From an uncultured virus (IMG/VR IMGVR_UViG_3300035498_001578) (taxonomy: Duplodnaviria > Heunggongvirae > Uroviricota > Caudoviricetes), in the IMG/VR virus record IMGVR_UViG_3300035498_001578: a DNA stretch of 56,813 nucleotides, one strand, 5' to 3'. A model generated the notes under the pieces. It saw only the letters and a list, made by a program, of their open reading frames with translations. It did not search any database and was not told the origin of the DNA. Every line of letters starts with the position of its first letter. Position 1 is the first letter of the stretch. Both the position numbers and the translations under genes were made by a program. This document shows, piece after piece, positions 21,228-54,933 of this stretch.

Positions 21228-21231
21228 TTCT

Positions 21232-21738: not shown

Positions 21739-21841
21739 AACGTCATATAAGAGGTTTTTAAATGAACAATGAATAAATACACAATCAAATATTAAAACCC
21801 TCTTAAAAGCAATCCTGAGGGCTTAGAAAGGAGGTTTAGAA

Positions 21842-22381
21842 ATGACTGTCTATAAAGTCGTTGGATATGATTCTTCTCCATATAGAGAAGAATACAAAGA
21901 TAAATTTATGTTTTATCCATCGTTTAATTGGGATTGGTATGCTTATGATTATCTATATAATTTATTATTACAGAAGCACTTAACTTCTTTGTTAGATAAA
22001 TATGATGATTTAATAACATTTAATTCCTATTCTATTAAAAATCAAAAAGCTTTTGGTGTATTGAAGAAAAAATGGTTACATCATATTATCGCAGGTAATT
22101 TAAGTATGAACGTACTTGGTAATCGTGGTAATAATTATTTGGTTTTCAATAGAGATTATATAACATTGGATGAGCTGTGTTTTGATAAGAAATTAACCAT
22201 TGCTGAAATTAGGCAGATGGAAAAAGATATAAGAAGGAATCTTGTTCTTGGAGAAGATTATAGTATCCATGAAAAGAATTTCTACTTTAAAAGAAAACAT
22301 CAAGCATTAAAGTTCATTAAGGAATTATGCGAAGCAACAGACCATAAATTTAACTTTTATGTTACTCCTGTCGTATTTTAA
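21842..22381 (+). CDS. expanded paralog family protein
   Basis: HHIIAG, LTIAEI, GEDY...FYF. Confidence 0.78.
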   Translation: MTVYKVVGYDSSPYREEYKDKFMFYPSFNWDWYAYDYLYNLLLQKHLTSLLDKYDDLITFNSYSIKNQKAFGVLKKKWLHHIIAGNLSMNVLGNRGNNYLVFNRDYITLDELCFDKKLTIAEIRQMEKDIRRNLVLGEDYSIHEKNFYFKRKHQALKFIKELCEATDHKFNFYVTPVVF

Positions 22382-22423
22382 TATTTAAAAAATATTTATA
22401 TTAAAAAAGAAAGGAAAGTAACT

Positions 22424-22981
22424 ATGATTTATTTTACAAGCGATTTGCATTTCGGGCATAAGAATGTTATAAACTTTGATAAACGCCCGTTTAAAACTAC
22501 TGAGGAGATGGATAATTTTATAATCAATAATTGGAACAAAACAGTCAGTACTAATGATACGGTTTATATATTAGGCGATATTTCTTTTCACGTTAATATA
22601 GAAGATGTTGTCAATAACATACAGCAGCTTAAAGGAAGTAAAATATTAATAAAAGGAAATCACGACAACGAATATTATAAAAAAGATATCTTTAAGGGGT
22701 GTTTTGTTGATATAAAGGATTATCACGAATTTAAATATAACCATAAACTTTTCGTTTTATCTCATTATCCTATGTTGTTTTATAATCACCAACACAGTAA
22801 TGGTATTATGTGCTATGGTCACGTACATAATTCTATTGAAGACGAATACATACAGTACTTTAAAGAATATTTAAAGGAAAAAGATATTCCGTGTAAAATG
22901 ATTAATGTAGGAATAATGAATAATGAATACAGACCCATATCAATAGATGACCTTATAAAGAAAGTAGAGGAAAAGAAATGA
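22424..22981 (+). CDS. calcineurin-like metallophosphoesterase (phage type)
   Basis: SDLHFGH, LGD, GNHD, HYP, GHVH, NVG motifs. Confidence 0.92.
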   Translation: MIYFTSDLHFGHKNVINFDKRPFKTTEEMDNFIINNWNKTVSTNDTVYILGDISFHVNIEDVVNNIQQLKGSKILIKGNHDNEYYKKDIFKGCFVDIKDYHEFKYNHKLFVLSHYPMLFYNHQHSNGIMCYGHVHNSIEDEYIQYFKEYLKEKDIPCKMINVGIMNNEYRPISIDDLIKKVEEKK

Positions 22982-23424
22982 GAAATTTATATTTTTACAT
23001 AATAGTACTTTTAATATTTGCATACTTAGAAAAAAGAAAGAGTTATTTTATACAGGAACTTGAGAAAGAAAACAAATCTGTTTCAACTGCTTGTTATGCA
23101 GCGTATACTTTACTGAATTTATTCATTGCATTAATACCATTCGTCAATCTACTGGTGCTTTATTTCATTATTTTTGAAAAACCATTGATAGATAAGGCGA
23201 TTAAAGGTATAATTAAGTCAGATTCAGAATCTCCTGTGGAAAATGAAGTGGAAAAAGAAATAATTGATGAAAAAAAACAAGAAGAAGAAATTGATGAATT
23301 ATTAGAAAAATTAAAAGTAAGTAAAGAAAAACCAAAAAGAAAAAGAAAAACTAAGCCTGCTTCTGTTGCTTTATATGAAAAGGTAACAAGTCAAGAATTG
23401 GAGGTTCAAAACCCTGAGAAATAA
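22978..23424 (+). CDS. hypothetical membrane protein
   Basis: Two hydrophobic segments and a charged tail; ATGA overlap with previous gene. Confidence 0.7.
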   Translation: MRNLYFYIIVLLIFAYLEKRKSYFIQELEKENKSVSTACYAAYTLLNLFIALIPFVNLLVLYFIIFEKPLIDKAIKGIIKSDSESPVENEVEKEIIDEKKQEEEIDELLEKLKVSKEKPKRKRKTKPASVALYEKVTSQELEVQNPEK

Positions 23425-33954: not shown

Positions 33955-34125
33955 CAAGCACCCTTGTTTTTAGAATATTCTAAAAATATGTTTCTGGTGA
34001 CTTCGGGCGATTTGCCGTCCGAAAGGTGAGGGTAATTCATTTCACATACCATTCAACACTTGTGATAGAATTTTAAGACTACACCAAAAAATGACGAGTA
34101 GTAGCCACCACTCACCAAATTCAAT
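33955..34125 (+). ncRNA. unidentified GC-enriched structured RNA
   Basis: Promoter 33892-33920; stems TTCGGGCG/CGTCCGAA, GGTGAG/CTCACC, TCACA/TGTGA, ACTAC/GTAGT; no ORF. Confidence 0.45.
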
Positions 34126-34552
34126 ATATAGTATATAATACTTTTTTATTTTTTTAGTTTTTTAAATTCTGTCGATGTATTGTAATGTAAAAATGCTAAG
34201 AGATTGACAGAAAATTAAAAACGCTTTATTTGCCTATGTTTTTGTGAAAATATAGTAAATAATAAATAAGAAATAATAATTGGAGGTAACTTTTCAATGA
34301 GTTCGACAAGATTAGTGTTTCAAATACTAACAAAATACACTATTGTATATTGAACGGGTATTAATACTAATATAGTGGAAAAGCAAAATAAGTTGATATA
34401 ATACCAGCGAATAAACAAATAACTGAATTTACTGTTACAGATACAGAATTAAAATATAAAAATAAAGTTCCTGTTGTTACAGGCAAAATAAATAATACTA
34501 ATAATACAGAACAAAATGTTTGTTTAAAAATCATATTCTATCGAATTTTAGG

Positions 34553-36169
34553 CAAGAGTACCCCCACTTCAAAAAATCGTTAGATTTTTAAGTGGGGGAT
34601 GAATTGCTTTTTTAATGGAAATATATTGAAAATATATTTATTTTAGTGTATAATAATTTTATAAATTTTTAAAGAAAGGAGGATATTTTAATGTATAAAA
34701 CTGATTGCATTATTGTTAAGAATGATGATAGTAATAAAAAATTAATAGAGTATTTTAAGGAAAATTGTAAAAATGCTAAGTTATTTAAAAATAGTGTTAT
34801 TTTTCGATTAAGACAACTTTTAACAGCTAGAAATAAAGAAAATAAAGATTTAAGTGATAATGAAATTCAAGTATTAAATGAATTTGAAGCTGTTAAAAGT
34901 AGTGAACATTCTAAATATTATAAGGATTTAAGAAAGAGTGGATTTCCTACTTATAATCTTATGGACGCTGTTTTTAAAGTAAACAATAATTCAGATTACT
35001 ATAATGATAATCCTATGCAAACTACTCAAAATATCATTAAAGAATGTTTAAATGATTTTAAATCTTATAATAATGCTAAAAAAGAATACATTAAAAATTC
35101 TTCTAAATTTACGGGAACGCCTAAACTTCCTGGTTATATTAAAACTGATGAAATCAGTTTTGATATAACGAATCAAGATGCCGTTGTTTATAAAAGAGAT
35201 GATGGTACTTTTTATCTTAAATTACCTAAAACTAAATTAGTTTTAAATTTAGGTAAAAGAGAAATATCTAACTTAAAAGAAGTAACCGTAACACCTTACT
35301 ACGATACATACAAAGTATGTATCGTTAGTGAAGTGGATATAAATAAAAATTATGATTTAGATGAATCTAAAATCATAGGAATTGATTTAGGTGTAGATAA
35401 TTTTCTAACTATAAGTAATAATTGTGGATTAAATCCATTTATTATTAATGGGAAAATTCTTAAATCTAAAAATCAATTTTTTAATAAAGTTACTTCCGAT
35501 TTAAAGAGCAAACTCCCTTTAGGAGTTTATTCTTCTAAAAGATTAGAACATATTCATAAATATCGTTCTAATTATATGAATGATGCTATACATAAGATTT
35601 CTACTTATATTATAAGTTATTGTTTAACTAATAAGATAGGTACTATTGTGGTAGGAAAAAATGGCTCTTGGAAACAAGAGTCTAATATTGGTACAATAAA
35701 TAACCAAAATTTTTGTTTCCTACCACATAGTACTTTTATTTCTAAACTTAAATATAAATGTGAAATGTATAATATTAAGTTTATACTTAATGAGGAATCT
35801 TATACATCTAAATCTTCCTTTTTAGATAATGACTTTATTCCTACTTATAAAAAAGATAATACTACTAATTATACTTTTAGTGGTAAAAGAGTATATAGAG
35901 GTTTATATATATCTAAAGAAGGAATTAAACTTAATGCTGATGTAAACGGAGCTTCTAATATAATAAAAAAAGCAGTTGACACTGCTTTTGAAAATATTAA
36001 AGATTTTAGCTATCTTTACTCAAAAATAGAAAGAATCAACATTTATTAAAAGTAATTCGAGTAACATCGAATAGATGGGTGGGTGGACACCCTAAAACTC
36101 AGTTCCTGAGTTTTAGAAACTCCCACTTCAAATTGAGGCAAAGCCTCAATTAAGTGGTGAGTTATTCAT
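34553..36169 (+). mobile_element. IS200/IS605-family non-autonomous element (tnpB only, IS1341-like)
   Basis: Subterminal hairpins CCCCCACTT...AAGTGGGGG (34561-34598) and CCCACTTC...AAGTGG near 36122-36156, TTCA(T) right end; removal restores the flanking frame; ends +/-1 nt. Confidence 0.85.
34691..36049 (+). CDS. tnpB: RNA-guided endonuclease TnpB
   Basis: PKLPGY, GIDLGVDN, IVVGKN...WKQ, EESYTSK, RGLY, NADVNGA motifs. Confidence 0.93.
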   Translation: MYKTDCIIVKNDDSNKKLIEYFKENCKNAKLFKNSVIFRLRQLLTARNKENKDLSDNEIQVLNEFEAVKSSEHSKYYKDLRKSGFPTYNLMDAVFKVNNNSDYYNDNPMQTTQNIIKECLNDFKSYNNAKKEYIKNSSKFTGTPKLPGYIKTDEISFDITNQDAVVYKRDDGTFYLKLPKTKLVLNLGKREISNLKEVTVTPYYDTYKVCIVSEVDINKNYDLDESKIIGIDLGVDNFLTISNNCGLNPFIINGKILKSKNQFFNKVTSDLKSKLPLGVYSSKRLEHIHKYRSNYMNDAIHKISTYIISYCLTNKIGTIVVGKNGSWKQESNIGTINNQNFCFLPHSTFISKLKYKCEMYNIKFILNEESYTSKSSFLDNDFIPTYKKDNTTNYTFSGKRVYRGLYISKEGIKLNADVNGASNIIKKAVDTAFENIKDFSYLYSKIERINIY

Positions 36170-36379
36170 TAGTGATACGACTATTACTATTCCTAAGAAT
36201 TGCAAACGACCTTTTGAAATAAAAGGCTTTTATATAAAGAATAGAGTAGAGCAAGATATAATAAGTAATTATAAAGTATTTGCCCAAGGTAATTATTTTC
36301 AATAAGTTGTATAAATAAGGAAAAATAAGCATATAATATAAATATCTTATTAAACACTTTAAAAAGGAGATATTTAATT

Positions 36380-36790
36380 ATGCTTAGTATTAATGAAGTT
36401 GAAAGTATTACAAATGAATTTAAAAATTATCTAATAGACAATTACGTAGAAAAAGAAAAACCATCTAATATATCTTTATCAGAGATAATAAATGGTTTAA
36501 TAACAGATAAAAATATTAATTTAGAATGGTGGAGTGGATATAAGAAAAGAATTAAATCAGGAGATATTGTTTATATACCTAATATTAAAAAATTTGGTAT
36601 ATTTATTTGCCCTGCGGTTAAGAAAGATAAGTTAAGAATTAGGTTGCTTAAAAATGATGATAAAAATAGCGTTTATTCTACAGATTGGTTCTTTAATTAT
36701 GATGAAATAAAAATTGTTAAGCATAATAATAAATTAAGTAGAAACTTTACAGAAACAGAAGATAATTTTATTTATAAATATGCTCAATAA
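36380..36790 (+). CDS. hypothetical protein (possible KOW/SH3-like segment)
   Basis: AAGGAG RBS; IKSGDIVYIP motif. Confidence 0.7.
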   Translation: MLSINEVESITNEFKNYLIDNYVEKEKPSNISLSEIINGLITDKNINLEWWSGYKKRIKSGDIVYIPNIKKFGIFICPAVKKDKLRIRLLKNDDKNSVYSTDWFFNYDEIKIVKHNNKLSRNFTETEDNFIYKYAQ

Positions 36791-36804
36791 TTTTTTAAAA
36801 ACTA

Positions 36805-36833
36805 TTGACAAAAGATTGAAAGTGTGATATAAT
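36805..36833 (+). promoter_or_regulatory. sigma-A promoter of RNA module B
   Basis: TTGACA-N17-TATAAT, extended -10. Confidence 0.85.
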
Positions 36834-36837
36834 ATAA

Positions 36838-37020
36838 CTGTTCTTGAAAAAGAGAACGGTAGGGGAATTTCAACTCCTTCCTTAAATATTGTCGTTAATG
36901 GATAACAGAGGTGTCCTTGACAATAAAATTTATTGGGAATTGTTTTCAATTACAGCCTACTTTCGAGTGGCGTAGAAGGAAATTTGTGTACCAATAAAAT
37001 ATATATTATATAGTTGCAAA
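36838..37020 (+). ncRNA. tracrRNA-like scaffold RNA, copy B
   Basis: Homologous to 39551-39730 with compensatory changes; ATTTCAA (36867-36873) and AATATATATTATATAGTTGCAA (36998-37019) complementary to array-B repeat. Confidence 0.75.
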
Positions 37021-37031
37021 TAATTATATAA

Positions 37032-37216
37032 GTGCGAATCTTAAAAAAGAATATTGTTTTTATATGTTTAAAAATTAGATTCGCACCTGTAATTCTGCAC
37101 AAAATTCAATATTTTTTTAATGGTAAATGATTTTTATAAAAAGTTATTTACTTATTAGTTGTTTATTATAACAAAGCAAAACTTAAAAATTGAATATTTT
37201 TTTGTGCAATATCGCA
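37032..37216 (+). promoter_or_regulatory. type I-C-like CRISPR leader, copy B
   Basis: Inverted repeat GTGCGAATCT/AGATTCGCAC ending 131 nt before repeat 1; TTTGTGCAATATCGCA junction. Confidence 0.7.
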
Positions 37217-37367
37217 GTTGCAACTTATATATGTGTATATATTGAAATAAATTCCATATAAGCTTTTTTTTGGTAAGCCTGTAATGTTGCAATTTATATA
37301 TGTATGTATATTGAAATATATCATCAGTTAAGGATGCACTACTTGACAACAACGTTGCAACTTATAT
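37217..37367 (+). CRISPR. mini CRISPR array B: two 32-bp repeats + one truncated repeat, 2 spacers (37, 36 bp)
   Basis: GTTGCAACTTATATATGTGTATATATTGAAAT at 37217, variant at 37286, 14-nt partial at 37354. Confidence 0.85.
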
Positions 37368-37466
37368 TGCAATTTGATAAAATTAAAATAAAATTTTTAT
37401 TATTTTGTTTAATATTTCTCTTTATTTATATATATAAATATATGAAAACAAAAAGGGAGGTAGAAA

Positions 37467-37685
37467 ATGATGACAATAACTTTTAATAATATTCAAACAG
37501 TTAAGGATTTTGTAAATACGACTAATAAATGTAACGGTGATGTTGAAGTAAAATCCGATAGATATGTAGTAGACGGTAAGTCTATTATGGGTCTTTTCTC
37601 TTTAGACTTTTCTTTACCAGTAGAGGTTGTTACTCATAATCCTGATGACTTGAAAACAATTAAAGATTTCATAAATACATTGTAA
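37467..37685 (+). CDS. HPr-like phosphocarrier-fold protein (Ser46-type motif present, His15 motif absent)
   Basis: VDGKSIMGLFSL motif; 72 aa; GGGAGG RBS. Confidence 0.85.
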   Translation: MMTITFNNIQTVKDFVNTTNKCNGDVEVKSDRYVVDGKSIMGLFSLDFSLPVEVVTHNPDDLKTIKDFINTL

Positions 37686-37798
37686 TTTATTTAATTGATT
37701 ATACATTTTGCCATTTTGTAATAATCCTCCTTGCAAATAAATTACAATTTATAAAGAGCTTAGTTTTAATACTAAGTTCTTTTTTTTATTAAAAATAC

Positions 37799-37827
37799 TT
37801 GACAAATAATAAAATTTATGATATAAT
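37799..37827 (+). promoter_or_regulatory. sigma-A promoter of the effector gene
   Basis: TTGACA-N17-TATAAT, extended -10. Confidence 0.85.
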
Positions 37828-37862
37828 ATAAACAAATAAAAACATTAAAGGAGGAAACAAAA

Positions 37863-39506
37863 ATGGCTAAATCAAAGAAAGAACCTTGTTTTACAATAGA
37901 AATACCATTGAATCTTGAAAAATTCCAAATTGATTTTTTAAATAAAAAATTGGAGTCTTGTAGAAAAATATATAATGCTTTGCTTAATGTAACTTCAAGA
38001 AGGTTTGAAGAAATGAAAAGAACAAAAAGATATAGATATGCTAATGAACTTCTTGATAAACATAAAATATCTACAAAATTAGAAAGTATATCATATAGAG
38101 GTATTATTAGTAAATTGCAAAAAGAAGAAAAGGAAATTGAAAAAAAGTTAAAGGATAAGAATTTATCACAAGAAGATAGAGTTTCTTTGACCAAACAAAA
38201 AGATAATATCTCTATAAAAACACAAGATATTGCAGAAGCTGATAAAATTAAAAATGATTTGTTGAAAGAATATAAAATTTCACAAAATATTTTTTACCAA
38301 GATTTGAAAGAAATCTATAAAAAATTTAATATTAATTCTAAGACAGCAGAAGGCGTTAAAGACAATCTTTGGAGAGCTTATGACAGTATTTTATATGGAA
38401 AAGGTGAAGAATTTCATCATAAAAGATATGGTACTTTCAATACTATGATTGGTAGTCGTAATAATAAAACTATTGAATTAAAGCTTGATAAAAATTGCAT
38501 AACATTTATGGGAAAAGATTATCCTATTAAATTGCCAAAAAATAACGAATATATTAATGAGGGATTAAAACACGAAATAAAAATGTGTAGAATTGTTCGT
38601 AAGAATATAAAAAAGAAAGATAGATTTTTTGTACAGGTAATTTTGATAGGTTATCCACCTACAAAATGCAATCGCCTTATGGGTAATGGTAAGGTTGGTA
38701 TTGATATTGGCACTCAAACTATTGCAGTATCTAGTGATAGAGAATTAAAATTGGAAGAGCTTGCAAAAGGAGCACAAGATATTCAAAATCAGCTCAGAAT
38801 AATTAACAGAAAAATGGATAGAAGTAGAAGAGCTACTAACCCTGATAACTTTAATGAAGATGGAACTTTTGTTACATTAAAAGAAGGAGAAAAGCGTAAG
38901 TGGAAACAATCAAACAACTATAAAAAATTAGCAGCTGAAAGAAAAGAACTTTTCAGAAAACAAGCCGATTTAAGAACACTTTCACACGAAACACTTGCTA
39001 ACGAAATTATTGGAATGGGCGATGAGTTTTATGTAGAAGATATGGATTTCAAAGCATTACAGAAAAAGGCTAAAAAGACTACTAAAAATTCTAAGGGTAA
39101 GTTTAACCGTAAAAAGAGGTTTGGTAAATCTTTGGCTAATAAAGCTCCTTCAAAGGCATTGGATATCTTAAATAGGAAACTTGGTTATTTCAATAAAGAA
39201 CTTATTAAAATAAACACTAAAAAAGCTAAAGCAAGTCAATATAACCACGTAGATAATACTTACGTTAAAATGCCATTAAGCAAAAGGTCTAAAACTATTG
39301 ATGGTAAAAAGTATCAACGTGACTTATATGCAGCTTATTGTATTAGTCACATCAATCCTGATTTGGAAACTTTTAATAGGCAGGAATGTATTAACGGTTT
39401 TGCTAATTTCGATAAAATGCACGATGAAGTAATCAGAGAGCTTAAAAATGATAATTCTACCCATAAGGTATCAAGTTTAGGGTTGAAAGATTTTTCAGAA
39501 TTATAA
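37863..39506 (+). CDS. CRISPR-associated TnpB/Cas12f-like type V effector (547 aa)
   Basis: RuvC-I VGIDIG, RuvC-II FYVEDMDF, RuvC-III QRDLYAA; TnpB-like N-terminus (CRKIYNALL); no CxxC pair; flanked by two arrays; no IS hairpin ends seen. Confidence 0.82.
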   Translation: MAKSKKEPCFTIEIPLNLEKFQIDFLNKKLESCRKIYNALLNVTSRRFEEMKRTKRYRYANELLDKHKISTKLESISYRGIISKLQKEEKEIEKKLKDKNLSQEDRVSLTKQKDNISIKTQDIAEADKIKNDLLKEYKISQNIFYQDLKEIYKKFNINSKTAEGVKDNLWRAYDSILYGKGEEFHHKRYGTFNTMIGSRNNKTIELKLDKNCITFMGKDYPIKLPKNNEYINEGLKHEIKMCRIVRKNIKKKDRFFVQVILIGYPPTKCNRLMGNGKVGIDIGTQTIAVSSDRELKLEELAKGAQDIQNQLRIINRKMDRSRRATNPDNFNEDGTFVTLKEGEKRKWKQSNNYKKLAAERKELFRKQADLRTLSHETLANEIIGMGDEFYVEDMDFKALQKKAKKTTKNSKGKFNRKKRFGKSLANKAPSKALDILNRKLGYFNKELIKINTKKAKASQYNHVDNTYVKMPLSKRSKTIDGKKYQRDLYAAYCISHINPDLETFNRQECINGFANFDKMHDEVIRELKNDNSTHKVSSLGLKDFSEL

Positions 39507-39517
39507 TTTAAAAACTA

Positions 39518-39546
39518 TTGACAAAGTTTAAAAAGTATGGTATAAT
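39518..39546 (+). promoter_or_regulatory. sigma-A promoter of RNA module A
   Basis: TTGACA-N17-TATAAT, extended -10, 11 nt after the effector stop. Confidence 0.85.
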
Positions 39547-39550
39547 ATAA

Positions 39551-39730
39551 TTGTCCTTGAAAAAAGGACGGTAGGGGAATTCCAACTCCTTCCTTAAATA
39601 TTACCGTTAATAGATATCAGAGGTATCTTTGGTAATAAAATTTATTGGGAATTATCTTCAATTACAAAGGCTTTCGAGCCAAGTAGAAGGAGATTTGCGT
39701 ACCAATAAAGCATACTTATATATAAGTGCG
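39551..39730 (+). ncRNA. tracrRNA-like scaffold RNA, copy A
   Basis: Stems GTCCTT/AAGGAC, TATTACC/GGTAATA, TTTATTGG/CCAATAAA, GGCT-TTCG-AGCC; ATTCCAA (39579-39585) complementary to repeat end TTGGAAT; partial anti-repeat at the 3' end. Confidence 0.78.
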
Positions 39731-39911
39731 AAACTCTAAAGTTTAATACTATTTTCGAGTAGGTTAAAATAAGTTTCGCACCAATAAAATTATACAAAAG
39801 TTAATATTCTCTTTACAATAAATAACTTTTGTAAATTGTTATTTTATATGTTATTTGTTTAAATTGAGTGAATAATAATTAAAAATTGAATATTTTTTGT
39901 ATAATTTTGCA
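39726..39911 (+). promoter_or_regulatory. type I-C-like CRISPR leader, copy A
   Basis: Inverted repeat GTGCGAAACT/AGTTTCGCAC ending 131 nt before repeat 1; AAAAATTGAATATTTTTTGT shared with copy B. Confidence 0.7.
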
Positions 39912-40347
39912 GTTGCAATATGTATATGTGTATGTATTGGAATATAAGCAAATGCACCATCACCAAGCACGTAAGAGTTGCAATATGTATATGTGTATGT
40001 ATTGGAATAAATGGGATATATCTAAAATATTCGCTTGTTATAGTTGCAATATGTATATGTGTATGTATTGGAATTTCCACACCGTTCTTTTTTGCGGCTG
40101 TTTTAAGCAGGTTGCAATATGTATATGTGTATGTATTGGAATAGCCTGTGAAACAATTAATTTATCTTTATTAGCAAGTTGCAATATGTATATGTGTATG
40201 TATTGGAATATCAGTTACTTCAATTAATTTCATTGCTTAACACATTTCTTTGTTGCAATATGTATATACGTATGTATTGGAATATCTGAGTATCTATCAA
40301 TATCAAGTGTATATTGTTGCAATATGTGTATGCGTATGTATTGGAAT
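39912..40347 (+). CRISPR. CRISPR array A: seven 32-bp repeats, 6 spacers (33, 34, 36, 35, 42, 32 bp)
   Basis: GTTGCAATATGTATATGTGTATGTATTGGAAT at 39912, 39977, 40043, 40111, 40178; variants at 40252 and 40316 (trailer end). Confidence 0.97.
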
Positions 40348-40590
40348 ATACTAAATTATTTATGTATGCGGATTGAAATTGATTTGCTTTTTTGTAAGAG
40401 ATGCCATAAGGAGCATTATGTCACATATATGTATTTTTTCCATTAAAACATCACAATACATACATATATGTGTGGGTTAAAACAATAAATAAATTTTTGT
40501 GGTGCGAATGCCAATTAAACATTAGCTGTATTGCAAAAAATTTATAAAATAAAAGAATTAATACAAACAATTAGAAAGGAATGATATTAA

Positions 40591-40914
40591 ATGGCTGAAT
40601 TTGAAGATATTAATATAGATTTATCTAAACGTACTCCTGCCGAATGGTCGGATATCTACCATTTAAAACTTTATAATTCTCCTCCTCGTCAGCTTTGGAC
40701 TGAATTTGAATGGGCTTATAATCTTCCTAATTTGGATTATCAATATATCCTCATAAATGATTCTTCCGAAGAAGCAGAGGAAATGGAACTTAGAGCTTTT
40801 GATATTAAGAATCTTATTTTCCATCTTGCTGATAAAAGTGAAAAAGAAATTCTTAAAACAAAATATATTGAAACTGAATGGATAAGAAAAAAACTTATTG
40901 TGAATGATTTTTAA
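40591..40914 (+). CDS. hypothetical protein
   Basis: AAAGGA RBS; 107 aa. Confidence 0.7.
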   Translation: MAEFEDINIDLSKRTPAEWSDIYHLKLYNSPPRQLWTEFEWAYNLPNLDYQYILINDSSEEAEEMELRAFDIKNLIFHLADKSEKEILKTKYIETEWIRKKLIVNDF

Positions 40915-40938
40915 CTGATAAGTTGGAGGTTACTATAT

Positions 40939-42300
40939 ATGTCTAATAAAAAACAAAAAATGATTATAAAATACGCAATGTCTCAGGTAAATAAATTTAA
41001 AACTAATAAGATAAAAGAAATGGACACTAACAATGTCCTATTTTCTGCTTTAAAAAATTATACTATTACAAAAGATAACTCAGTATTAAACCTTGTAAAT
41101 AAAGTAAAAGATATCCTTAATACATATTATCCTTCTAATGAATCTAACGAAGTAAATGTTATGATAAATATTCTTTCTGATAAGATTTTGGAAGTTAATA
41201 ATGGCATTCATAATGAAATAATTCCTAATGATATAAAATCTTATATAGATGCTTGTATAGAAGACCTTGTAACCGAAAGTTTTGTTAATGAAATTAAAAC
41301 AGAGTGTAATGCTTCTAATATTACATTAAATGATAAGTTTTCTTTATTCGACTTAATTTCAGAAGGTAATATTAGTGACCTTACTGCTATGTATTTAACA
41401 TTATTATGTTATATCTCTTGTTCTAAACAAATCTCTTATTCTCGCAATAATAAAGATTTAAATAAAATAAAATTTACTGATGAAGATGCTATAAGCGTAA
41501 TTTTCTCTTTTGTTTTAGCTTCCGTAAATTTTATTGCTAGTAATTTTTATGAAAGAGATTATGAAAGAGGTTGTTCTGATACTGAAAAAAAATTCTTTGA
41601 AGAAAAAAAGATTATAGTGGATGACTTTAAGGAAAAAATGATTTCACTTGAAAAAGCCCAACAAGAAATAACTACTCTTAAAGATAAGTATACCAAATTG
41701 CAAAATTCTTTAGAAGCAAGAGTAGATAAAAAGGTAGATAAGATTAGTAAATCCTTAACCGAAGAAAAGAAATCTTTAGCTTCTGAGAATAATAGATTAA
41801 AACTTAAAATTCAGGAGCTGCAAGAGAAAAATAATAATCTCCAATCTATTGTAGATAAGCAGGCTAAACAAACCATTAATAACGAAAAGATTGAAACTCT
41901 TAATAAGACTATTAAGAAACTTACAGAACAGAATAATAATTTAAGGAAATTAACTTCTAATCCTGTTATTGAAAAAACTATTAATAATATAGAACAAGAT
42001 TTCCCTGAGGATAAAACTATTGATATGAATAGAAGTATTCTTTTTATTGGTGGTCATACGACTACTCTTGAAAACTTATGTTCTATTTATTCTAAGGCTG
42101 ATTGTGTTTCTAATGAAACTACTGAGCTTAATCAATCTTATATGAATAGTTTTGATGGTATTGTATTCTTAACCGATTTCTTATCTCATAACCTCTATAA
42201 GAAGATTAAGAGATTAGCTGATAAATATAATATTAAATACATACATTGTAAAAAGAATAATGTCGATTTAATTATCGACGATATTGAAAATAACTTTTAA
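40939..42300 (+). CDS. coiled-coil protein with C-terminal DUF2325-like domain
   Basis: Heptad region followed by ILFIGGH...DGIVFLTDFLSH...IKYIHC. Confidence 0.8.
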   Translation: MSNKKQKMIIKYAMSQVNKFKTNKIKEMDTNNVLFSALKNYTITKDNSVLNLVNKVKDILNTYYPSNESNEVNVMINILSDKILEVNNGIHNEIIPNDIKSYIDACIEDLVTESFVNEIKTECNASNITLNDKFSLFDLISEGNISDLTAMYLTLLCYISCSKQISYSRNNKDLNKIKFTDEDAISVIFSFVLASVNFIASNFYERDYERGCSDTEKKFFEEKKIIVDDFKEKMISLEKAQQEITTLKDKYTKLQNSLEARVDKKVDKISKSLTEEKKSLASENNRLKLKIQELQEKNNNLQSIVDKQAKQTINNEKIETLNKTIKKLTEQNNNLRKLTSNPVIEKTINNIEQDFPEDKTIDMNRSILFIGGHTTTLENLCSIYSKADCVSNETTELNQSYMNSFDGIVFLTDFLSHNLYKKIKRLADKYNIKYIHCKKNNVDLIIDDIENNF

Positions 42301-49578: not shown

Positions 49579-50094
49579 CTACTGAAATTGATTATCTGTA
49601 CATACATAATAACCTTCTTTGTATATATAATTCATTTCATTACAAAACTTGTAAGCATCTACTTCGTTGTCAAAGTAAAATTCATTGGAATAAGTTTCAT
49701 AATCTTTACCTTTAACAAAGTTTTCTTTTATTGTAGAATAAATATAATTAATTTCTTCCTTAGAAAGAAGTTGTTTCTTATATAATTCATGAAAAGAATA
49801 AGAATGAACACCATTATAATGGTCTATTATTCTTAAAAACTTAGTCTTTGCTATACCGTAAATTGAAGAATTATCTATTTCTAAATCAAGCCCTTTCATA
49901 GCTAAGAAAAATTCCATTTCTTTTACTTTACTCATAAAATTTTCACAGGTTATAATGTAATGTTTAAATTGAATATAACTATAATCTTGTATAAGTTCTT
50001 TTATTCTTTCGGACGGACAATTTAGAATTATTTCCATATTTTCCATATTTGTAAGTTTTATATTACTATTTCTAATGTAAAATAAATTATTCAT
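49579..50094 (-). CDS. expanded paralog family protein
   Basis: FFLAMKG, LSKEEI, GKDY...FYF. Confidence 0.78.
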   Translation of the reverse strand: MNNLFYIRNSNIKLTNMENMEIILNCPSERIKELIQDYSYIQFKHYIITCENFMSKVKEMEFFLAMKGLDLEIDNSSIYGIAKTKFLRIIDHYNGVHSYSFHELYKKQLLSKEEINYIYSTIKENFVKGKDYETYSNEFYFDNEVDAYKFCNEMNYIYKEGYYVCTDNQFQ

Positions 50095-50106
50095 ATAAAC
50101 TCCTTT

Positions 50107-50628
50107 CTATAAAAAAAGTTGAAGCACATTAATATCTTGGATATAATAATTTGTGTTATCTGATTTTATTCTTTTAATTATATCATCGCAAGTTTTATAA
50201 TTGTTAAAACATAATTCTTCTGTTGCAACATAATCTATTTTTTCTTTATATTTAGAAAAAACATTATGTAACTTCCTTACTTCCTTTAAACTAAGAATCT
50301 TATCTCTATATAATGCAAGAGTGGAAATATAGAAACAATCATTAGAAATAAAAGAAAGTTTGCTCTTAAAACAACTTACTGTTAATTCCCCTGTAATTAT
50401 TTTATGGAATAATTGCTGTTTTATTTCATAAAATATCTTTTCGTTATTAATTTTGTAATAATAAAAAGACATTGATTTGTTTAGAATAGATTGAATATAT
50501 TCATCAGATAAATTATTATCTTTTAAAAACTTTTCATTACTAAGAAATTTTGTATCAATAAAAGAAATATCGTTTAATGTGTGTAAATAATCTTGGTAAT
50601 GGTAATATATTCTATATATCTTTTTCAA
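50107..50628 (-). CDS. expanded paralog family protein
   Basis: LFHKIITG, LSLKEV, HNVFSKY. Confidence 0.78.
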   Translation of the reverse strand: MKKIYRIYYHYQDYLHTLNDISFIDTKFLSNEKFLKDNNLSDEYIQSILNKSMSFYYYKINNEKIFYEIKQQLFHKIITGELTVSCFKSKLSFISNDCFYISTLALYRDKILSLKEVRKLHNVFSKYKEKIDYVATEELCFNNYKTCDDIIKRIKSDNTNYYIQDINVLQLFL

Positions 50629-50648
50629 TTATATCTCTCCTCTCTAAA

Positions 50649-51191
50649 TTAAAGTGTTGGTCTTACCTCTGCTATACAATAGTCTTTTTCACTATATGAT
50701 GAATCACTCTCTTTTATTGTTTTAATTATTCTTTCACAGGAAAGACGATTTGTAAAGTATAAATCTTCGTGTTGAAAATAATCTTCGTCTGCTTTATACT
50801 TAGAAAAAACATTATGTACTTTCTTTATTTCTTCTAAAGTAAGAATGTTTTTCTTATATAAACTGTAAGTATTGGTAAGAATACCTGTATAAGTTATAAA
50901 AATAAGAACATTAGGTCTTAGTTTGTAATCTTTAGTCCAACGGGCTATTTTCAAATCTCTTGCAACAATCCTATGAAATAGAACCAATTTTATGTCATCA
51001 ATTATTTTTTCATTATATATTTTATAACTATGAAAATCTTGACTGTTTGTAAAAAAATCTTGAATATTGTTATTTTGACTACAATCAAGTAGCATTTTTC
51101 TAATAGAGTTTGTATCAAGGTCAATAAATTCAAGATAACGATATTGATTATTACATATATTTTTGAGTTTTATTGAATATAGTTCTTCCAT
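50649..51191 (-). CDS. expanded paralog family protein
   Basis: LFHRIVA, LTLEEI, HNVFSKY. Confidence 0.78.
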   Translation of the reverse strand: MEELYSIKLKNICNNQYRYLEFIDLDTNSIRKMLLDCSQNNNIQDFFTNSQDFHSYKIYNEKIIDDIKLVLFHRIVARDLKIARWTKDYKLRPNVLIFITYTGILTNTYSLYKKNILTLEEIKKVHNVFSKYKADEDYFQHEDLYFTNRLSCERIIKTIKESDSSYSEKDYCIAEVRPTL

Positions 51192-51203
51192 ATATAGCCC
51201 CTT

Positions 51204-51722
51204 TTAATGGTACTTACTAATTTTGTAAATTACATCTTCATTAGGATATTTATTTATTTTTTCTATTGCTTTTTTAGCTGAACTCTTGGTTATGAAAAAC
51301 AATTGTTCAAAAATAGCATAATCTTTTCCTCTTTTGTAGTTTAAGAAAACATTATGAAGATTATTTATTTCTTTTAAAGTAAGAACCTTATTTCTATACA
51401 TATTAATTGTTGAGCTGTAACAATAGATACCTTGTGTAAAGCAAAGGTTGTTAGTAAATAAATCTATCTTTAAATCCCCTGAAATAATCTTATGAAAAAA
51501 TAGTTTTTTAATATCCTCATAAATCTTTTCGTTAATAACAGTGTATGTATAAAAAGAAACTGTATCTTCTAATATACATTGTATATCGAACTTAGTAAGG
51601 TTATTCGCTTTTAATAATTCTTCTCTGTAGAAAAAGTCAGAATTAATAAAACGAATATCATCTTTTCTTATTTCAAGAAAGTTGTTTCCATTTACTGCGT
51701 ATATATTATATAACGGTTTCAA
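51204..51722 (-). CDS. expanded paralog family protein
   Basis: FFHKIISG, LTLKEI, GKDY. Confidence 0.78.
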   Translation of the reverse strand: MKPLYNIYAVNGNNFLEIRKDDIRFINSDFFYREELLKANNLTKFDIQCILEDTVSFYTYTVINEKIYEDIKKLFFHKIISGDLKIDLFTNNLCFTQGIYCYSSTINMYRNKVLTLKEINNLHNVFLNYKRGKDYAIFEQLFFITKSSAKKAIEKINKYPNEDVIYKISKYH

Positions 51723-51729
51723 AAGTTAG

Positions 51730-52332
51730 TCACTTCCTTTGAGGTATTTTTATAGGCTCTATGTTGTTTGGATGATAAAGGAACAAATTATCGCTACTAA
51801 TATTGGCAATATTAAAACCATTATACCTATAATCAGTTAAAATTTTTCTACCCATAAGGTGGGTTACGGCTTTAGCATCTTTGTATTTTTCAAAACAAAC
51901 ATATTCATCTATAACTTCATAATCAATTCCTTTTCCATAATTAGAAAAGATGTTATGTAACTTTTTTATTTCTTTTAAAGTAATAACTTTGTTTCTAAAC
52001 AATGAAAGGGTATTTAAATGAATATATTTTTTACAAATAAAAGCTATGCAATTTGCATTGTTTTCATTGTACGTGTTTATTTTGAAATCACCTGAAATAA
52101 TTCTATTAAAGAATAGCGAAATAATTTCTTTGGTTATTTCATCATTATAGATATTATACTTATAGAAAGAGAAAATCTTATCTAAAATAAGATTCTTTTC
52201 TTCTTCGGTAATACCACCTGTTTCTAAAGTATAGGATAATTCTTTTGTCATAAATTCTTTTGTCACAACAAGTTTAGTTAATATGTTTGATTTATTATAA
52301 GCCTGATAATCTATACAAAATAAGTTTTTCAT
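51730..52332 (-). CDS. expanded paralog family protein
   Basis: FFNRIISG, ITLKEI, GIDY; promoter upstream. Confidence 0.78.
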   Translation of the reverse strand: MKNLFCIDYQAYNKSNILTKLVVTKEFMTKELSYTLETGGITEEEKNLILDKIFSFYKYNIYNDEITKEIISLFFNRIISGDFKINTYNENNANCIAFICKKYIHLNTLSLFRNKVITLKEIKKLHNIFSNYGKGIDYEVIDEYVCFEKYKDAKAVTHLMGRKILTDYRYNGFNIANISSDNLFLYHPNNIEPIKIPQRK

Positions 52333-52458
52333 TGTTCTTCTCCTCTCTTTTTTAAGTAACTATATTATATCATAAATTTTGTTATTTGTCAAGAATATAT
52401 TAAGAACTTTTATATATTAAAAACCCTTAGTAGTTAATCGTTCTACTAAGGGTAATTG

Positions 52459-53262
52459 TTATTCAATAAAATATATAATTATTGTGCCGTCACTGGCTTT
52501 TTTGTATGACATACAATCTCCGTCTGCAATATTCATTTCATTAAACAAACTAAAGCAATAATCAAAATATGAATTAATATTTTCTAAATCTTCATTAGTA
52601 ATAAACTCTTTATTGCAAAGAGTTTCAATAAGACGATATTCTTTTTTATCAAAATCAAACTCCAATCTATCGTCTTTATAAACTTGAAGAAGATTTCTAC
52701 TTAATTCGCTTTCTCCATAATGAACACTACAATAATTCATTGAACTGTTTTTTGTATCAGTATAACATTGTTTAATAAAGTCAAATTTACTATCAAAAAT
52801 TTTATATAATGCTACGCTTAAAATCTGAAATACATCATTTTCATTTTCAAAAACCTCTATGATTTGAGGAAGATATGGGTTGCTTAGATTTTTTATTATT
52901 GTATCAATGTAATATGATAAATAATTGTCCGAACCCATAAAAGCATTATATATAAGGTTTTTTATTTTTTCAGAAAAGACAAACTCAGTAAAATAATTGT
53001 AGTTCAATAAATCATTATTTAATTTTTCTACAATACTATTATGCGGTGCTTTGACATACAACATATTAGAAGTGTTTAAAATGCTCTGATATTTGTGTTC
53101 TTCGTAATTTTCTTCTTTATAAACTTCAATAAGATGTTTTTCAAATAGATTGTTTTTATCAAAAATAAGTTCTGTTCTATAATTATTTAATATATCTTTT
53201 TTCTTTGTGGGAAAATCCATAATAGTATAATTATTTTCGGTTGTATATACTTTAATTTTCAA
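52459..53262 (-). CDS. hypothetical protein
   Basis: Probable TTG start at 53262 after AAGGAGG. Confidence 0.7.
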   Translation of the reverse strand: MKIKVYTTENNYTIMDFPTKKKDILNNYRTELIFDKNNLFEKHLIEVYKEENYEEHKYQSILNTSNMLYVKAPHNSIVEKLNNDLLNYNYFTEFVFSEKIKNLIYNAFMGSDNYLSYYIDTIIKNLSNPYLPQIIEVFENENDVFQILSVALYKIFDSKFDFIKQCYTDTKNSSMNYCSVHYGESELSRNLLQVYKDDRLEFDFDKKEYRLIETLCNKEFITNEDLENINSYFDYCFSLFNEMNIADGDCMSYKKASDGTIIIYFIE

Positions 53263-53275
53263 ATTAAATTCCTCC

Positions 53276-53782
53276 TTAATAGAATCTATAATAAACCCGT
53301 TCAAATACTAAAGAATTTACTCTAAAAATAATATAAGGATACCAGTTTTTAGAACACTTATGAAAAGTATCATTAACAAGTTGTATATCTCTTAGTCTTT
53401 TAAATAAGATGTATTTATCTGTACTATAATCAACACCTTCTTTAAAGTTTTGTTCGATATATTCTTGTATTTTTCCCATTTCTTTCAATGTTATTTTATT
53501 ATTTGTATAAGCTCTTAATAATGTTGTTCCACAAACCATAAGATAGTTTTCTTTATCAAGTTTAAATGTTAAGTCCCTGCCATTAAGTAAATCCATAAAG
53601 AACATTTGCTTTAAATAATTAAGAATTTCAGTATTGTTGATAATATATATATTTGAAAACATAACATTTTTCTTAGGTATAGCATTGATTTTATCTATTA
53701 CTTCTTCATATTTTTCAAGTTCTTTGAATGTGACTAATTCTCTATAACCTGTATGTCTTAATACATAACGATTATTTGCCAT
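53276..53782 (-). CDS. expanded paralog family protein
   Basis: FFMDLLNG, ITLKEM, NFKEGVDY. Confidence 0.78.
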   Translation of the reverse strand: MANNRYVLRHTGYRELVTFKELEKYEEVIDKINAIPKKNVMFSNIYIINNTEILNYLKQMFFMDLLNGRDLTFKLDKENYLMVCGTTLLRAYTNNKITLKEMGKIQEYIEQNFKEGVDYSTDKYILFKRLRDIQLVNDTFHKCSKNWYPYIIFRVNSLVFERVYYRFY

Positions 53783-53804
53783 AATAAATCCCCTTTTCTA
53801 TAAA

Positions 53805-54323
53805 TTATACACTACAATGCAAAATACTATATAGTGTATTCTTGCAAGGATAATTCTTTATCATTAATGCAACCTTTCTTGCAAGTCTATATTGTTTGAA
53901 GAATAATTCTTCATACGTAGAGTAATCTTTTTCATCATATTTAGAAAAGATATTATTTATTTTCTTTACTTCTCTTAAAGTAAGGATTTTATTTTTATAT
54001 AACTTAAAAGTATTTATAGTTGTTTTATTGTCTTCTTTGATGAATAATTCATTTTTATTTATTTCGCCATTAAGGATTTTAACAAAAAATAAAGCTGTTA
54101 TATCGTTAATTATATTCTCGTTGGAAGTTGTATAATTATAAAACCTTATGACATTTTTAGTGTTAAGAATTTTTTGAACATCGTTTGCTGAAAGATTATT
54201 TTTCTTCAATAATTCTTTGCAGGTTATATAATCCGTATTAACATAAGCTTTTTTGTATATTCGCATTTCCTCAAAAAGTGGTTGTTCATAATCAAAGAAA
54301 AATATTTTATATAAAAAACTCAT
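53805..54323 (-). CDS. expanded paralog family protein
   Basis: FFVKILNG, LTLREV, FSKY; promoter upstream. Confidence 0.78.
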   Translation of the reverse strand: MSFLYKIFFFDYEQPLFEEMRIYKKAYVNTDYITCKELLKKNNLSANDVQKILNTKNVIRFYNYTTSNENIINDITALFFVKILNGEINKNELFIKEDNKTTINTFKLYKNKILTLREVKKINNIFSKYDEKDYSTYEELFFKQYRLARKVALMIKNYPCKNTLYSILHCSV

Positions 54324-54411
54324 TTATTATCCTCCTTTTTAATTGATTGTATTATACCATAAAATTTATTGTTTGTCAAGATTTTAAAAAAAGGGAGAAT
54401 AAATCTCCCTT

Positions 54412-54933
54412 TTATGAAATATATTGTTTAGCTTTCCAAGAACAAAAAAGATTATATCTTCTATTTATATAATTACAAAATCTTTCGGCTTCACTTTCAG
54501 ATGTAAAATAAATCTTGTAATTATTTATGTTGTAATCCATATAAATGATAAGATTGTTTTTTATGGAATCATATATGTAGTTTATTTCCTCATAAGATAA
54601 AATATCATCTTTATATAATTCACATAAGGAATGATGTTCTTCTTCGTCATTCCTATCTACAATTCTTAAATTGTAAGTCATATCTTCTTCGTTAGAAGTA
54701 TAATATAATCTTTTCAACTTAAGCTTAAAACCTTTTAGAGTTAATAAGAAGTCTACATCTTTTATTTTGCTTATAAATTCCTTATTAGATATTTGATAAT
54801 CATTAAAACGAACATAATCGTAATCATCAATAAGTCCATCAAGCTCAAACCTTGAACAACATAAAATGTTTAACATTTCACGTACATTTATGTTTCTTCC
54901 TATTGTGTTTTTTATTCCATATAATTTACTCAT
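54412..54933 (-). CDS. expanded paralog family protein, close to 49579
   Basis: FLLTLKG, LSYEEINYIY. Confidence 0.78.
   Translation of the reverse strand: MSKLYGIKNTIGRNINVREMLNILCCSRFELDGLIDDYDYVRFNDYQISNKEFISKIKDVDFLLTLKGFKLKLKRLYYTSNEEDMTYNLRIVDRNDEEEHHSLCELYKDDILSYEEINYIYDSIKNNLIIYMDYNINNYKIYFTSESEAERFCNYINRRYNLFCSWKAKQYIS

Follow-up and report, generated by a model that had tools for sequence, protein, structure and literature searches.

The stretch of DNA analysed here (the window) comprises 56,813 nt from an uncultured virus of the Caudoviricetes (IMG/VR record IMGVR_UViG_3300035498_001578), has a G+C content of about 24%, and represents about 48% of a contig of about 118.8 kb. The object of this study is a locus at 36.8-40.5 kb, in which one nuclease gene is located between two homologous modules, A and B. 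Each module consists of a TTGACA-17-TATAAT promoter, a structured RNA of about 170 nt, a leader of 185-186 nt, and a CRISPR array. The modules are homologous over their whole length, as seen in an end-to-end alignment, and three identical consensus promoters precede scaffold A, the nuclease gene, and scaffold B. An earlier note on this DNA had proposed that the arrays descend from a type I-C locus, keep the signals for spacer insertion by the Cas1-Cas2-Cas4 proteins of the host, and have switched to use with a trans-activating CRISPR RNA (tracrRNA).

Module A begins with a sigma-70 promoter (36805..36833, +) which matches the consensus at 12 of 12 positions and has a TG before the second hexamer. 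It is followed by scaffold RNA copy A (36838..37010, +), a tracr-like and apparently omegaRNA-derived molecule, whose anti-repeat tail (36991..37020, +) pairs with repeat nt 1-29. Leader A (37032..37216, +) carries a distal inverted repeat at 37032..37086 (arms 37032-37041 and 37077-37086) and leads into array A (37217..37385, +), with repeats at 37217-37248 and 37286-37317 and a degenerate third copy from 37354. A small open reading frame (ORF) of 72 aa (37467..37685, +), with a weak HPr match under the Pfam cut-off, lies between array A and the nuclease gene, and a terminator scan placed a terminator-like hairpin 3′ of it, at 37753-37782. The nuclease gene (37863..39506, +) has its own promoter (37799..37827, +; 12/12 matches) and encodes P0001, a 547-aa TnpB-derived, Cas12-like protein. 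Module B comprises a promoter (39518..39546, +; 12/12 matches), the likewise omegaRNA-derived scaffold RNA copy B (39551..39721, +), an anti-repeat tail (39701..39725, +) which is 17 nt shorter than that of A and pairs with repeat nt 9-30, leader B (39726..39911, +) with a distal inverted repeat at 39726..39781 (arms 39726-39735 and 39772-39781), and array B (39912..40379, +), which contains 7 repeats and 6 spacers and is closed by a degenerate copy abutting at 40348-40379. Beyond it, in the segment 40420..40508, repeat-like sequence forms a strong hairpin (40420-40476), and a solitary GTGCGAA half-site follows (40502-40508); the half-site reads GGTGCGAATGCC and resembles the 5′ arm of the inverted repeats in I-C leaders. 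This segment may represent a terminator together with the remnant of a third leader. Rfam gave no match within 34000-41000.

The relationship of P0001 to known nucleases was evaluated at the levels of sequence and fold. The best PADLOC models are Cas12u4 (6.8e-11) and Cas12f (4.8e-10), and the NCBIfam model guided_TnpB matches at 1.1e-17, under its cut-off. The structure model of P0001 (predicted local distance difference test score, pLDDT, 82.2) finds TnpB and Cas12f at the top of the Foldseek results (8iaz, 6e-12; 8hr5, 2e-11; 8h1j, 1e-10), and LaTranC (9jfq) is reached at E 1.5e-7, at rank 23. A sequence search of the PDB with P0001 gave no match, LaTranC included, and a profile reaches the Cas12n entry 9j09 at E 0.009. 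Residues D281, E392, and D487 are invariant in 69 sequences. According to the model, P0001 is a protein of the TnpB/Cas12 fold with a RuvC D-E-D triad. Of 8000 scored candidates, 2807 match its family at E≤0.001; the majority of the members are of about 486 aa, are about 43% identical, and are named transposase. To judge from these relatives, P0001 derives from the IS200/IS605-type TnpB family. P0001 and its 64%-identical relative P0003 (558 aa) have acquired a longer helical N-terminal region via insertions relative to the relatives of about 486 aa, and the zinc-finger cysteines are replaced throughout the family. Neither a TnpA gene nor transposon ends flank P0001. No close relative of the nuclease locus appeared in a single-protein scan of viral contigs or in a two-sequence-alignment scan of metagenome contigs. 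A second and ordinary TnpB of 452 aa is encoded at 34691-36049 (+), 1.8 kb upstream of the locus. It matches the OrfB_IS605 and Cas12f1-like TNB domains, is above the guided_TnpB cut-off, and belongs to a family different from that of P0001.

The scaffold RNA provides the link between the nuclease and the arrays. Copies A and B share 42 predicted base pairs, 6 of which show compensatory double changes. A covariance model (R1) was built from the two copies; of 80 viral loci, 32 have an R1 match directly 3′ of a TnpB-like ORF at E≤0.01, and the number rises to 54 at E≤1. Because these matches lie directly after TnpB-like ORFs, the scaffold RNA is best regarded as a descendant of the omegaRNA of the P0001 family. 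In the relatives, the omegaRNA ends in a terminal hairpin followed by GTRTCAG, and the copies diverge beyond this point, which marks the transposon end and guide boundary. In 25 of 29 relatives, the loop of the first hairpin is fully complementary to the hexamer that precedes the guide, and several co-varying states occur; shuffled partners gave a mean of 12.2 (standard deviation, sd, 2.1), and none of 1000 shuffles reached 25. Such covariation indicates that the omegaRNA loop and the pre-guide hexamer form a pseudoknot.

The scaffold of the window breaks off ahead of the terminal hairpin, and a repeat-complementary tail takes its place. The anti-repeat of A pairs with repeat nt 1-29 at -19.9 kcal/mol (background mean -10.9, sd 2.7), and 2 of 267 background pieces of the window are as low; for that of B with repeat nt 9-30 the energy is -16.8 kcal/mol (background -12.8, sd 2.9; 31 of 275 as low). 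The loop of stem 1 is AATTTCAA in A (36866-36873) and AATTCCAA in B (39578-39585). Each loop is complementary to the last 7 repeat nt of its own array, TTGAAAT in A and TTGGAAT in B, and the two loops differ at the single position which matches the difference between TTGGAAT and TTGAAAT. Written as RNA, the proposed partners of the trans-pseudoknot are the stem-1 loop AAUUCCAA and the repeat end UUGGAAU. It seems, then, that the repeat:anti-repeat duplex stands where the terminal hairpin was, and that the 3′ end of the repeat supplies the strand of the pseudoknot. The switch to tracr-dependent use that the earlier note had proposed is supported by three features, namely the omegaRNA-homologous neighbouring RNA, the anti-repeat tail, and the loop co-varying with the repeat end. 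An architecture of this kind has been termed “functional RNA splitting” in TranC systems and is credited to Jin et al. 2025 in the available text of sources that cite that work (PMC13639567 and two preprints).

The repeats were described by the earlier note as being of 32 bp, and this length is found in both arrays. Array B has seven copies at 39912-40347, of which five are identical and the last two carry 2 mismatches each; array A has two copies differing at 3 positions, and a degenerate copy closes each array. The spacers are of 37 and 36 nt in array A and of 32-42 nt in the six of array B. Seven of the eight spacers begin with A, and therefore the repeat unit may be of 33 bp rather than 32. 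The repeats end in the 3′ block (A/G)TATTG(A/G)AAT and start with GTTGCAA, where I-C repeats have GTCGC. Repeats of the I-C class are 32-33 nt long, start with GTC(G/A)C, and end with GTGGATTGAAAT. An in-register comparison with a consensus drawn from 26 I-C repeats, each of 32 nt, shows 17-19 of the 32 positions to be identical (z about 5 against shuffles), and the mean number of matches to I-C repeats is 17-18 versus 9.5-10.3 (sd about 1.5) for shuffled repeats.

The 3′ tail of the I-C repeat, of about 11 nt, is unpaired, and the repeat is the substrate of Cas5c. Across 43 I-C repeats the minimum free energy has a mean of -13.0 kcal/mol and a range of -17.0 to -7.4, against -2.7 and -3.4 kcal/mol for array A and -8.5 for array B. 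In this comparison the window repeats lack the GC-rich I-C stem-loop with its unpaired 3′ tail. The weakness of the internal hairpin, pointed out in the earlier note, is thus fully seen in array A; the repeat of array B does fold, into an A-U/G-U stem of -8.5 kcal/mol, in a register different from that of I-C and reaching nearly to the 3′ end of the repeat. The termini GTTGCAA and ATTGRAAT are not specific for I-C: with a loose two-repeat pattern, genome contigs gave 62 loci, of which 8 are real arrays, with repeats of 30-35 nt and scattered over bacteria and archaea. The strict repeat pattern matched nowhere in viral contigs or in genome contigs, and the leader-junction pattern had no match in viral contigs and 32 in metagenome loci, all of them single chance matches without arrays.

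Both leaders contain the inverted repeat on which the earlier note was based, with GTGCGAA at 37032-37038 and 39726-39732 and TTCGCAC at 37080-37086 and 39775-39781. It ends 131 nt before repeat 1 in both modules (repeat 1 starts at 37217 and 39912). GTGCGAA occurs three times in the window (37032, 39726, and 40502) and TTCGCAC twice, at the two leader sites. The true length of the arms is 10 bp (GTGCGAATCT/AGATTCGCAC in module A, GTGCGAAACT/AGTTTCGCAC in module B), and the arms of the two modules differ by a compensatory T>A / A>T change. As RNA, the leader hairpins fold with energies of -18.3 and -17.9 kcal/mol (z -5.4 and -4.8), and none of 200 shuffles is as low. The equal spacing of 131 nt is partly inherited, because the modules are homologous; two offsetting 1-nt indels keep the distance. 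The inverted repeat spans 55 and 56 nt with AT-rich loops, and the middles of the leaders are AT-rich and diverged. Leader B ends with TTTTTTGTATAATTTTGCA, which holds an extended -10-like TGTATAAT, its final stretch being ATATTTTTTGTATAATTTTGCA. At the junction with the array, leader B has TTTTGCA, as in I-C and phage leaders, and leader A has ATCGCA, a partial match to the I-C junction. Since the hairpin is not followed by a T-run, the reading of the inverted repeat as a canonical intrinsic terminator was rejected.

For comparison, 43 type I-C leaders were collected. A sample of the class Clostridia contributed 30 of them, with Cas8c in 37 of 301 genomes and arrays in 30 of the 35 examined regions downstream of cas8c. 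The other 13 are from a second family, to which a record titled uncultured Clostridium sp. had led; here Cas8c was present in 17 of 249 genomes and arrays in 13 of 16 regions. The parallel with I-C leaders drawn by the earlier note is borne out by the sample, as an inverted repeat with at most 1 mismatch per arm is present in 25 of the 43 leaders (both arms exact in 12), with a span of 42-44 nt and an end 105-139 nt from repeat 1. Within the class sample the arms are exact in 11 of 30 leaders and have at most 1 mismatch each in 17 of 30, and the commonest distance to repeat 1 is 130 nt. In the second family the inverted repeat is present in 8 of 13 leaders and ends 124-137 nt from repeat 1. 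With 131 nt, both window leaders fall within this range. The I-C leaders end in TTTGCT in 14 of 43 cases and in TTTGCA in 1 of 43; many have TTTTTGCT at the repeat junction, and TTTGCT is often part of ATTTTTGTnnATTTTTGCT. The TTTTGCA of leader B agrees with the I-C junction TTTTTGC(T/A). The internal motif AAGC..ACAT..GG of the 42-44-nt inverted repeats is absent from the window leaders, whose inverted repeats span 55-56 nt.

The bare pattern GTGCGAA-N25-50-TTCGCAC was rejected as a marker of I-C, since it occurs in 42 of 301 genomes versus 31 with a reversed control; only the inverted repeats of 42-44 nt with the internal motif mark arrays. Inverted repeats were examined at 20 further sites; at 17 of these an array follows at a distance of about 104-140 nt, and the other 3 have neither the internal motif nor an array. 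Of the arrays at these 17 sites, 13 have I-C-type repeats and 4 (L333, L334, L335, and L337, all from Clostridia) have repeats of 35-37 nt, which end in ...GGGGACGGAAAC or similar and have the inverted repeat at about 125-128 nt. These longer repeats appear to be type III-like. Since both kinds of array stand behind the inverted repeat, the leader is not tied to one repeat type, and it marks arrays which go with I-C adaptation modules; the signal apparently belongs to the adaptation module and not to the effector, which suggests that different effector types share one adaptation module via a common leader.

A bridge between the window and bacterial I-C loci is provided by L090, the closest array found in bacterial genomes with the loose two-repeat pattern. 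It lies on a phage-like contig of 4.8 kb binned with a Ruminococcus metagenome-assembled genome, which also has a complete I-C operon, whose leader opens directly after cas2 with GTGCGAACCT...AGGTTCGC, about 126 nt before repeat 1. The leader of L090 ends with ...CATTTTTGCA before GTTGCAAC...ATTGAAAT repeats, has an inverted repeat 140 nt upstream, and matches the profile of the 43 I-C leaders over its full length (nhmmer E 8e-7). When the window leaders were aligned with it, 6 of 500 shuffles reached the score of leader A and 1 of 500 that of leader B; for junction plus repeat none of 500 did. L090 contains, at 2480-2580, another leader-like stretch, with AATTTTTGCA at its end; the I-C-like repeat after it, GTCACAACC...GGATTGTAAT, is present in one copy only. 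This lone repeat could be a solitary repeat unit and, conceivably, an RNA decoy for I-C Cas proteins.

Closer relatives were found on phage contigs. A scan of IMG/VR for the inverted repeat, spacing, and junction together gave 48 loci, among them 18 distinct phage-borne leaders on contigs of 44-346 kb, which precede mini-arrays of 1-6 copies. The repeats of these mini-arrays are of 34 nt, GTTGCA(A/C)CCC....GGGTTGCGTTAGATTGAAAT, running GTTGCAAC...ATTGAAAT. From the end of their inverted repeat to repeat 1 the distance is 130-132 nt, and TTTGTAYAAGTTTGCT forms the junction before GTTGCAAC. The phage leader L287 aligns with leader B at a score of 27.5, versus -1.3 (sd 4.8) for shuffles, none of 500 of which reached the score for either A or B; leader A is homologous to leader B and to the leaders of L090 and L287. 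Five phage records carry the closest arrays. Three of these five encode Cas8c, and Cas1 was found in none of them, three being at least 90% complete. It is probable that the arrays of the Cas8c-encoding records use Cascade. According to the available text of PMC7162821, huge phages carry a type I-C variant without Cas1 and Cas2, and phage arrays may use Cas proteins of the host; the phage-borne mini-arrays are probably candidates for this variant.

Because the nearest arrays are on phage contigs and not in bacterial I-C loci, the window arrays probably descend through a phage-borne branch of the I-C array lineage. The descent from a I-C locus claimed by the earlier note is therefore kept, on the strength of motifs, repeats, and bridges, in a refined form in which the source would be this phage-borne lineage and not a bacterial locus. 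Likewise, the expected alignability with I-C leaders holds through the bridging leaders L090 and L287 and fails for the 43-leader profile.

Two other viral loci combine elements of the same kinds. In L299, on the 346-kb viral record G544 (reverse strand, 802-3720), a gene for a 574-aa relative of P0001 lies about 1 kb from an array; after it come some 200 nt of non-coding, GC-rich DNA, a 155-aa ORF, and then an I-C-type leader with a 3-repeat array. This phage has its own cas3-cas5-cas8c-cas7, at least 5 mini-arrays, and no cas1. G544 was rejected as a second coupling of nuclease and array, as R1 does not match and the anti-repeat is at background (-22.2 versus -22.3, sd 2.2). In the GC-rich viral contig L072 (6001-8003), a 31%-identity relative of P0001 is followed, immediately past its stop codon, by the inverted repeat of an I-C-type leader (7503-7544) and, about 220 nt past it, by a 4-copy array of 33-nt repeats. 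It may represent a second, independent pairing of the TnpB family of P0001 with an I-C-type array.

With regard to the genomic setting, 9 of 25 window proteins have a PHROG match at E≤1e-5, including an endolysin, PhoH, and phrog_33734; two transfer RNAs are present, and many window ORFs are without a family match. Neither a capsid nor a terminase gene was found within the 56.8 kb. The window looks like part of a phage or other mobile element, and the carrier of the locus is probably a phage. For the window PhoH, every named cellular homologue (about 46% identity) comes from Clostridium or a related genus, and in one family of such bacteria I-C is present in 17 of 249 genomes. Tandem small ORFs of 136-200 aa occur in two runs, at 14843-23424 (+) and 49579-55457 (-). 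They have almost no Pfam match, the exception being 22424-22981 (Metallophos_2), and a paralogue inside the window was found at E≤1e-5 for 21 of the 29 tested. DUF2325 is located at the C-termini of two proteins, one encoded at 40939-42300 (+), immediately 3′ of array B, and the other at 55691-56803 (-), where the match is slightly under the Pfam cut-off (32.4 versus 33.6 bits).

Taken together, these data are best explained by a chimeric, tracr-dependent CRISPR system, with arrays and leaders of the I-C lineage, a TnpB-derived nuclease, and spacers obtained from I-C adaptation acting in trans; we give this explanation a probability of about 0.6. Arrays and leaders would come from the I-C lineage, nearest to its phage-borne branch, and would have kept the inverted repeat at about 130 nt and the TTTTGC(A/T) junction. 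The effector would be the 547-aa TnpB-derived nuclease and not Cascade. The omegaRNA would be split in two, with the scaffold transcribed from its own consensus promoter ahead of each array, its new 3′ tail pairing with the 5′ two-thirds of the repeat. The stem-1 loop would pair with the last 7 repeat nt (TTGRAAT), right before the spacer, so that the ancestral omegaRNA pseudoknot would be rebuilt in trans. New spacers would be inserted at the leader end by an I-C-type Cas1-Cas2-Cas4 from the host or from a co-resident element. Of this picture, the anatomy, homologies, and complementarities are shown by the present data, and the insertion of spacers in trans is inferred.

In I-C acquisition, the motif selected lies 5′ of the protospacer, on the side that type V and TnpB nucleases also read; because of this, spacers selected by I-C would be directly usable by the nuclease. 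The protospacer-adjacent motif (PAM) of type I-C is TTC. A 5′-TTC PAM is given for a TranC nuclease in the available text of bioRxiv 10.1101/2025.09.28.678669. Subtype-specific motifs 100-200 bp upstream, with critical spacing, are described for I-C leaders in the available text of bioRxiv 10.1101/2023.05.26.542337. None of cas3, cas5c, cas8c, cas7, cas4, cas1, and cas2 was found in the window (Pfam, 60 ORFs), and the lowest E value from tblastn of the window with the seven I-C Cas proteins of L144 was 0.05. In array B the five repeats nearest the leader are identical and the distal ones are mutated, an order that can be read as a sign of polar growth. The window spacers are of 32-42 nt, and 93% of 847 I-C spacers are of 33-36 nt. 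Spacer insertion by Cas1-Cas2-Cas4 of a host I-C system is a plausible and coherent account of these features.

Several observations weigh against this explanation. The profile of the 43 I-C leaders gives E values of 1.2-7.7 on the window leaders, which are not significant, and for this reason the I-C link of the window rests on motifs and spacing, repeats, and bridging sequences; the profile of the phage-borne leaders finds nothing in the window at E≤10. The junction of leader A is ATCGCA, not TTTGCA, and anti-repeat B, taken alone, is weak. Protospacers were found neither in the window nor in L001-L080, in 344 fetched loci (3.2 Mb), or in the phage collection (all E≥0.3), and hence a PAM could not be read. 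Three copies of distant TnpB relatives in phage c-st have left ends beginning with TTACA, which corresponds to a TTAC-like target and not to TTC; this neither supports nor refutes a TTC PAM for P0001. The host, which would have to supply the adaptation proteins, is a guess from the PhoH homologues, and cas1, cas2, and cas4 or Cascade genes may be located outside the window. The arrays are small (2 and 6 spacers), and acquisition could be ancient or extinct.

Small arrays are also what would be expected if arrays and leaders were relics inherited from an I-C-type locus, without acquisition, serving as a fixed set of 8 guides for the nuclease. The leader motifs would then persist by descent or have a different role, for example in termination of the scaffold RNA or in the stability of its 3′ end. 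Such a role would suit an inverted repeat that stands about 12 nt (A) or directly (B) after the anti-repeat, has a strong RNA fold, and has a loop 12-13 nt longer than in I-C leaders, a difference which also counts against the preferred explanation; the middles of the leaders, moreover, have diverged past profile detection. We nevertheless consider this account unlikely. The arms with their compensatory change, the 131-nt spacing, and the junction have been kept in two otherwise drifted paralogous leaders, the hairpin lacks the T-run of a terminator, and the five identical leader-proximal repeats of array B point to duplication after the divergence of A and B.

A different possibility is that the arrays serve a type I-C Cascade, of the host or of the unseen half of the phage, and that a transposon unrelated to them has left the TnpB-like gene and its RNA beside them by chance. 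The I-C-type leaders and repeat termini would fit this, as would the Cas8c encoded by 3 of the 5 phage records with the closest arrays and the 574-aa relative of P0001 in G544, which lies about 1 kb from an array without a significant anti-repeat. It is made improbable by the repeats themselves, in which the GC-rich I-C stem-loop is missing (A) or replaced by an A-U/G-U stem of another register (B), and by the scaffold RNA, which is duplicated along with each array and, in its tail and loop, shows both complementarity to the repeat and covariation with it. The three identical promoters before scaffold A, nuclease, and scaffold B, the conserved D-E-D catalytic residues, and the lack of a flanking TnpA gene or transposon ends argue in the same direction. 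The phage might also possess an adaptation module of its own outside the window, with autonomous acquisition, given that the window is about 48% of the contig and that complete CRISPR-Cas systems are known in some phages (available text of PMC7162821). We give this a similarly small chance, as a search for Cas1 found none in the 5 phage records that carry the closest arrays, of which three are at least 90% complete.

If the preferred chimeric system is accepted, its origin by capture can be proposed tentatively, at somewhat less than even odds. A type V-like system would have been born when a phage TnpB lineage took over a ready-made I-C array and leader and thereby gained the I-C spacer supply. 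The omegaRNA would have gained an anti-repeat, and its pseudoknot loop would have been re-tuned to ATTGAAAT, the conserved end of the I-C repeat. Leaders of the I-C type would in this case serve as a portable socket by which unrelated effectors, cellular or viral, plug into one adaptation machine. For the passage from TnpB to CRISPR, the available text of PMC10691335 favours arrays arising by duplication of omegaRNA segments and regards insertion beside a pre-existing array as also possible. The present locus offers a concrete and testable case of the latter route by which TnpB nucleases become CRISPR effectors. Its scaffold can still be aligned with the omegaRNA of transposon relatives, so that the steps, splitting at the terminal hairpin and rebuilding of the pseudoknot in trans, are readable. 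It also offers a specific prediction on how phage arrays without cas1 obtain spacers, and a compact 547-aa nuclease with a defined guide architecture. The locus is possibly a snapshot of a new CRISPR system assembled from borrowed parts.

TranC-like systems, phage arrays without cas1, and I-C leader motifs are each already known as a class. Their combination, with a loop re-tuned to the I-C repeat end, was not found in the literature searched, which had supplements and Jin et al. 2025 outside its scope, and part of it may already be in print. For TranC, no mention of I-C-type leaders was found in that literature or in the available text of two preprints.

Among known systems, the I-C arrays of Clostridia share with the window a repeat of 32-33 nt with a GT start and a ATTGAAAT end, the same array orientation, an inverted repeat about 130 nt out, a TTTTGC(T/A) junction, and spacer lengths centred on 33-36 nt. 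The window differs in having no GC-rich hairpin, a GTTGCAA start, an inverted repeat of 55-56 nt, and no adjacent cas3-5-8c-7-4-1-2 operon. The phage-borne mini-arrays (L276, L287, L292, L300, and L307) are similar to it in their location on phage contigs, in the presence of several short arrays per genome without cas1, and in their GTTGCAAC...ATTGAAAT repeats, inverted repeat at 130-132 nt, and TTTGTAYAAGTTTGCT junction; unlike the window, they have 34-nt repeats with a GC-rich hairpin and no scaffold RNA detectable with R1.

On the side of the nuclease, IS200/IS605 TnpB elements of the same protein family, for example the copies in Clostridium phage c-st and phiCD211, encode a protein 35-47% identical to P0001 and have a homologous RNA scaffold directly 3′ of the gene, with a pseudoknot beside the guide. 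In contrast to the window, their protein is of about 486 aa, tnpA and transposon ends are present, and a single fixed guide follows ...GTGTCAG, without an array. Cas12f and Cas12n (types V-F and V-U4) are miniature tracr-dependent type V effectors, as P0001 is proposed to be, and give the best PADLOC and some of the best fold matches; the similarity is remote, the zinc-finger cysteines are replaced in P0001, and its array is of I-C type.

An architectural parallel exists with TranC. These systems are described as intermediates between TnpB and Cas12 with a split omegaRNA in the available text of citing sources (PMC13639567, bioRxiv 10.64898/2026.03.27.714800, and bioRxiv 10.1101/2025.09.28.678669). 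Their arrays are called “unknown subtype” in one of the citing texts, and neither I-C-type leaders nor the source of the spacers is mentioned in the available parts of these texts. In TranC clades 3 and 11 the repeats are of 32-36 bp, with a median of 32-33 bp. The similarity of P0001 to LaTranC is at the level of the fold. As far as these texts go, TranC resembles the window in its compact TnpB-like nuclease (547 aa here, 574 aa in the LaTranC-derived TranC11a), in an omegaRNA split into a tracrRNA and a CRISPR RNA, in short arrays with repeats of 32-36 bp and no adjacent cas genes, and in its occurrence in Bacillota and phages.

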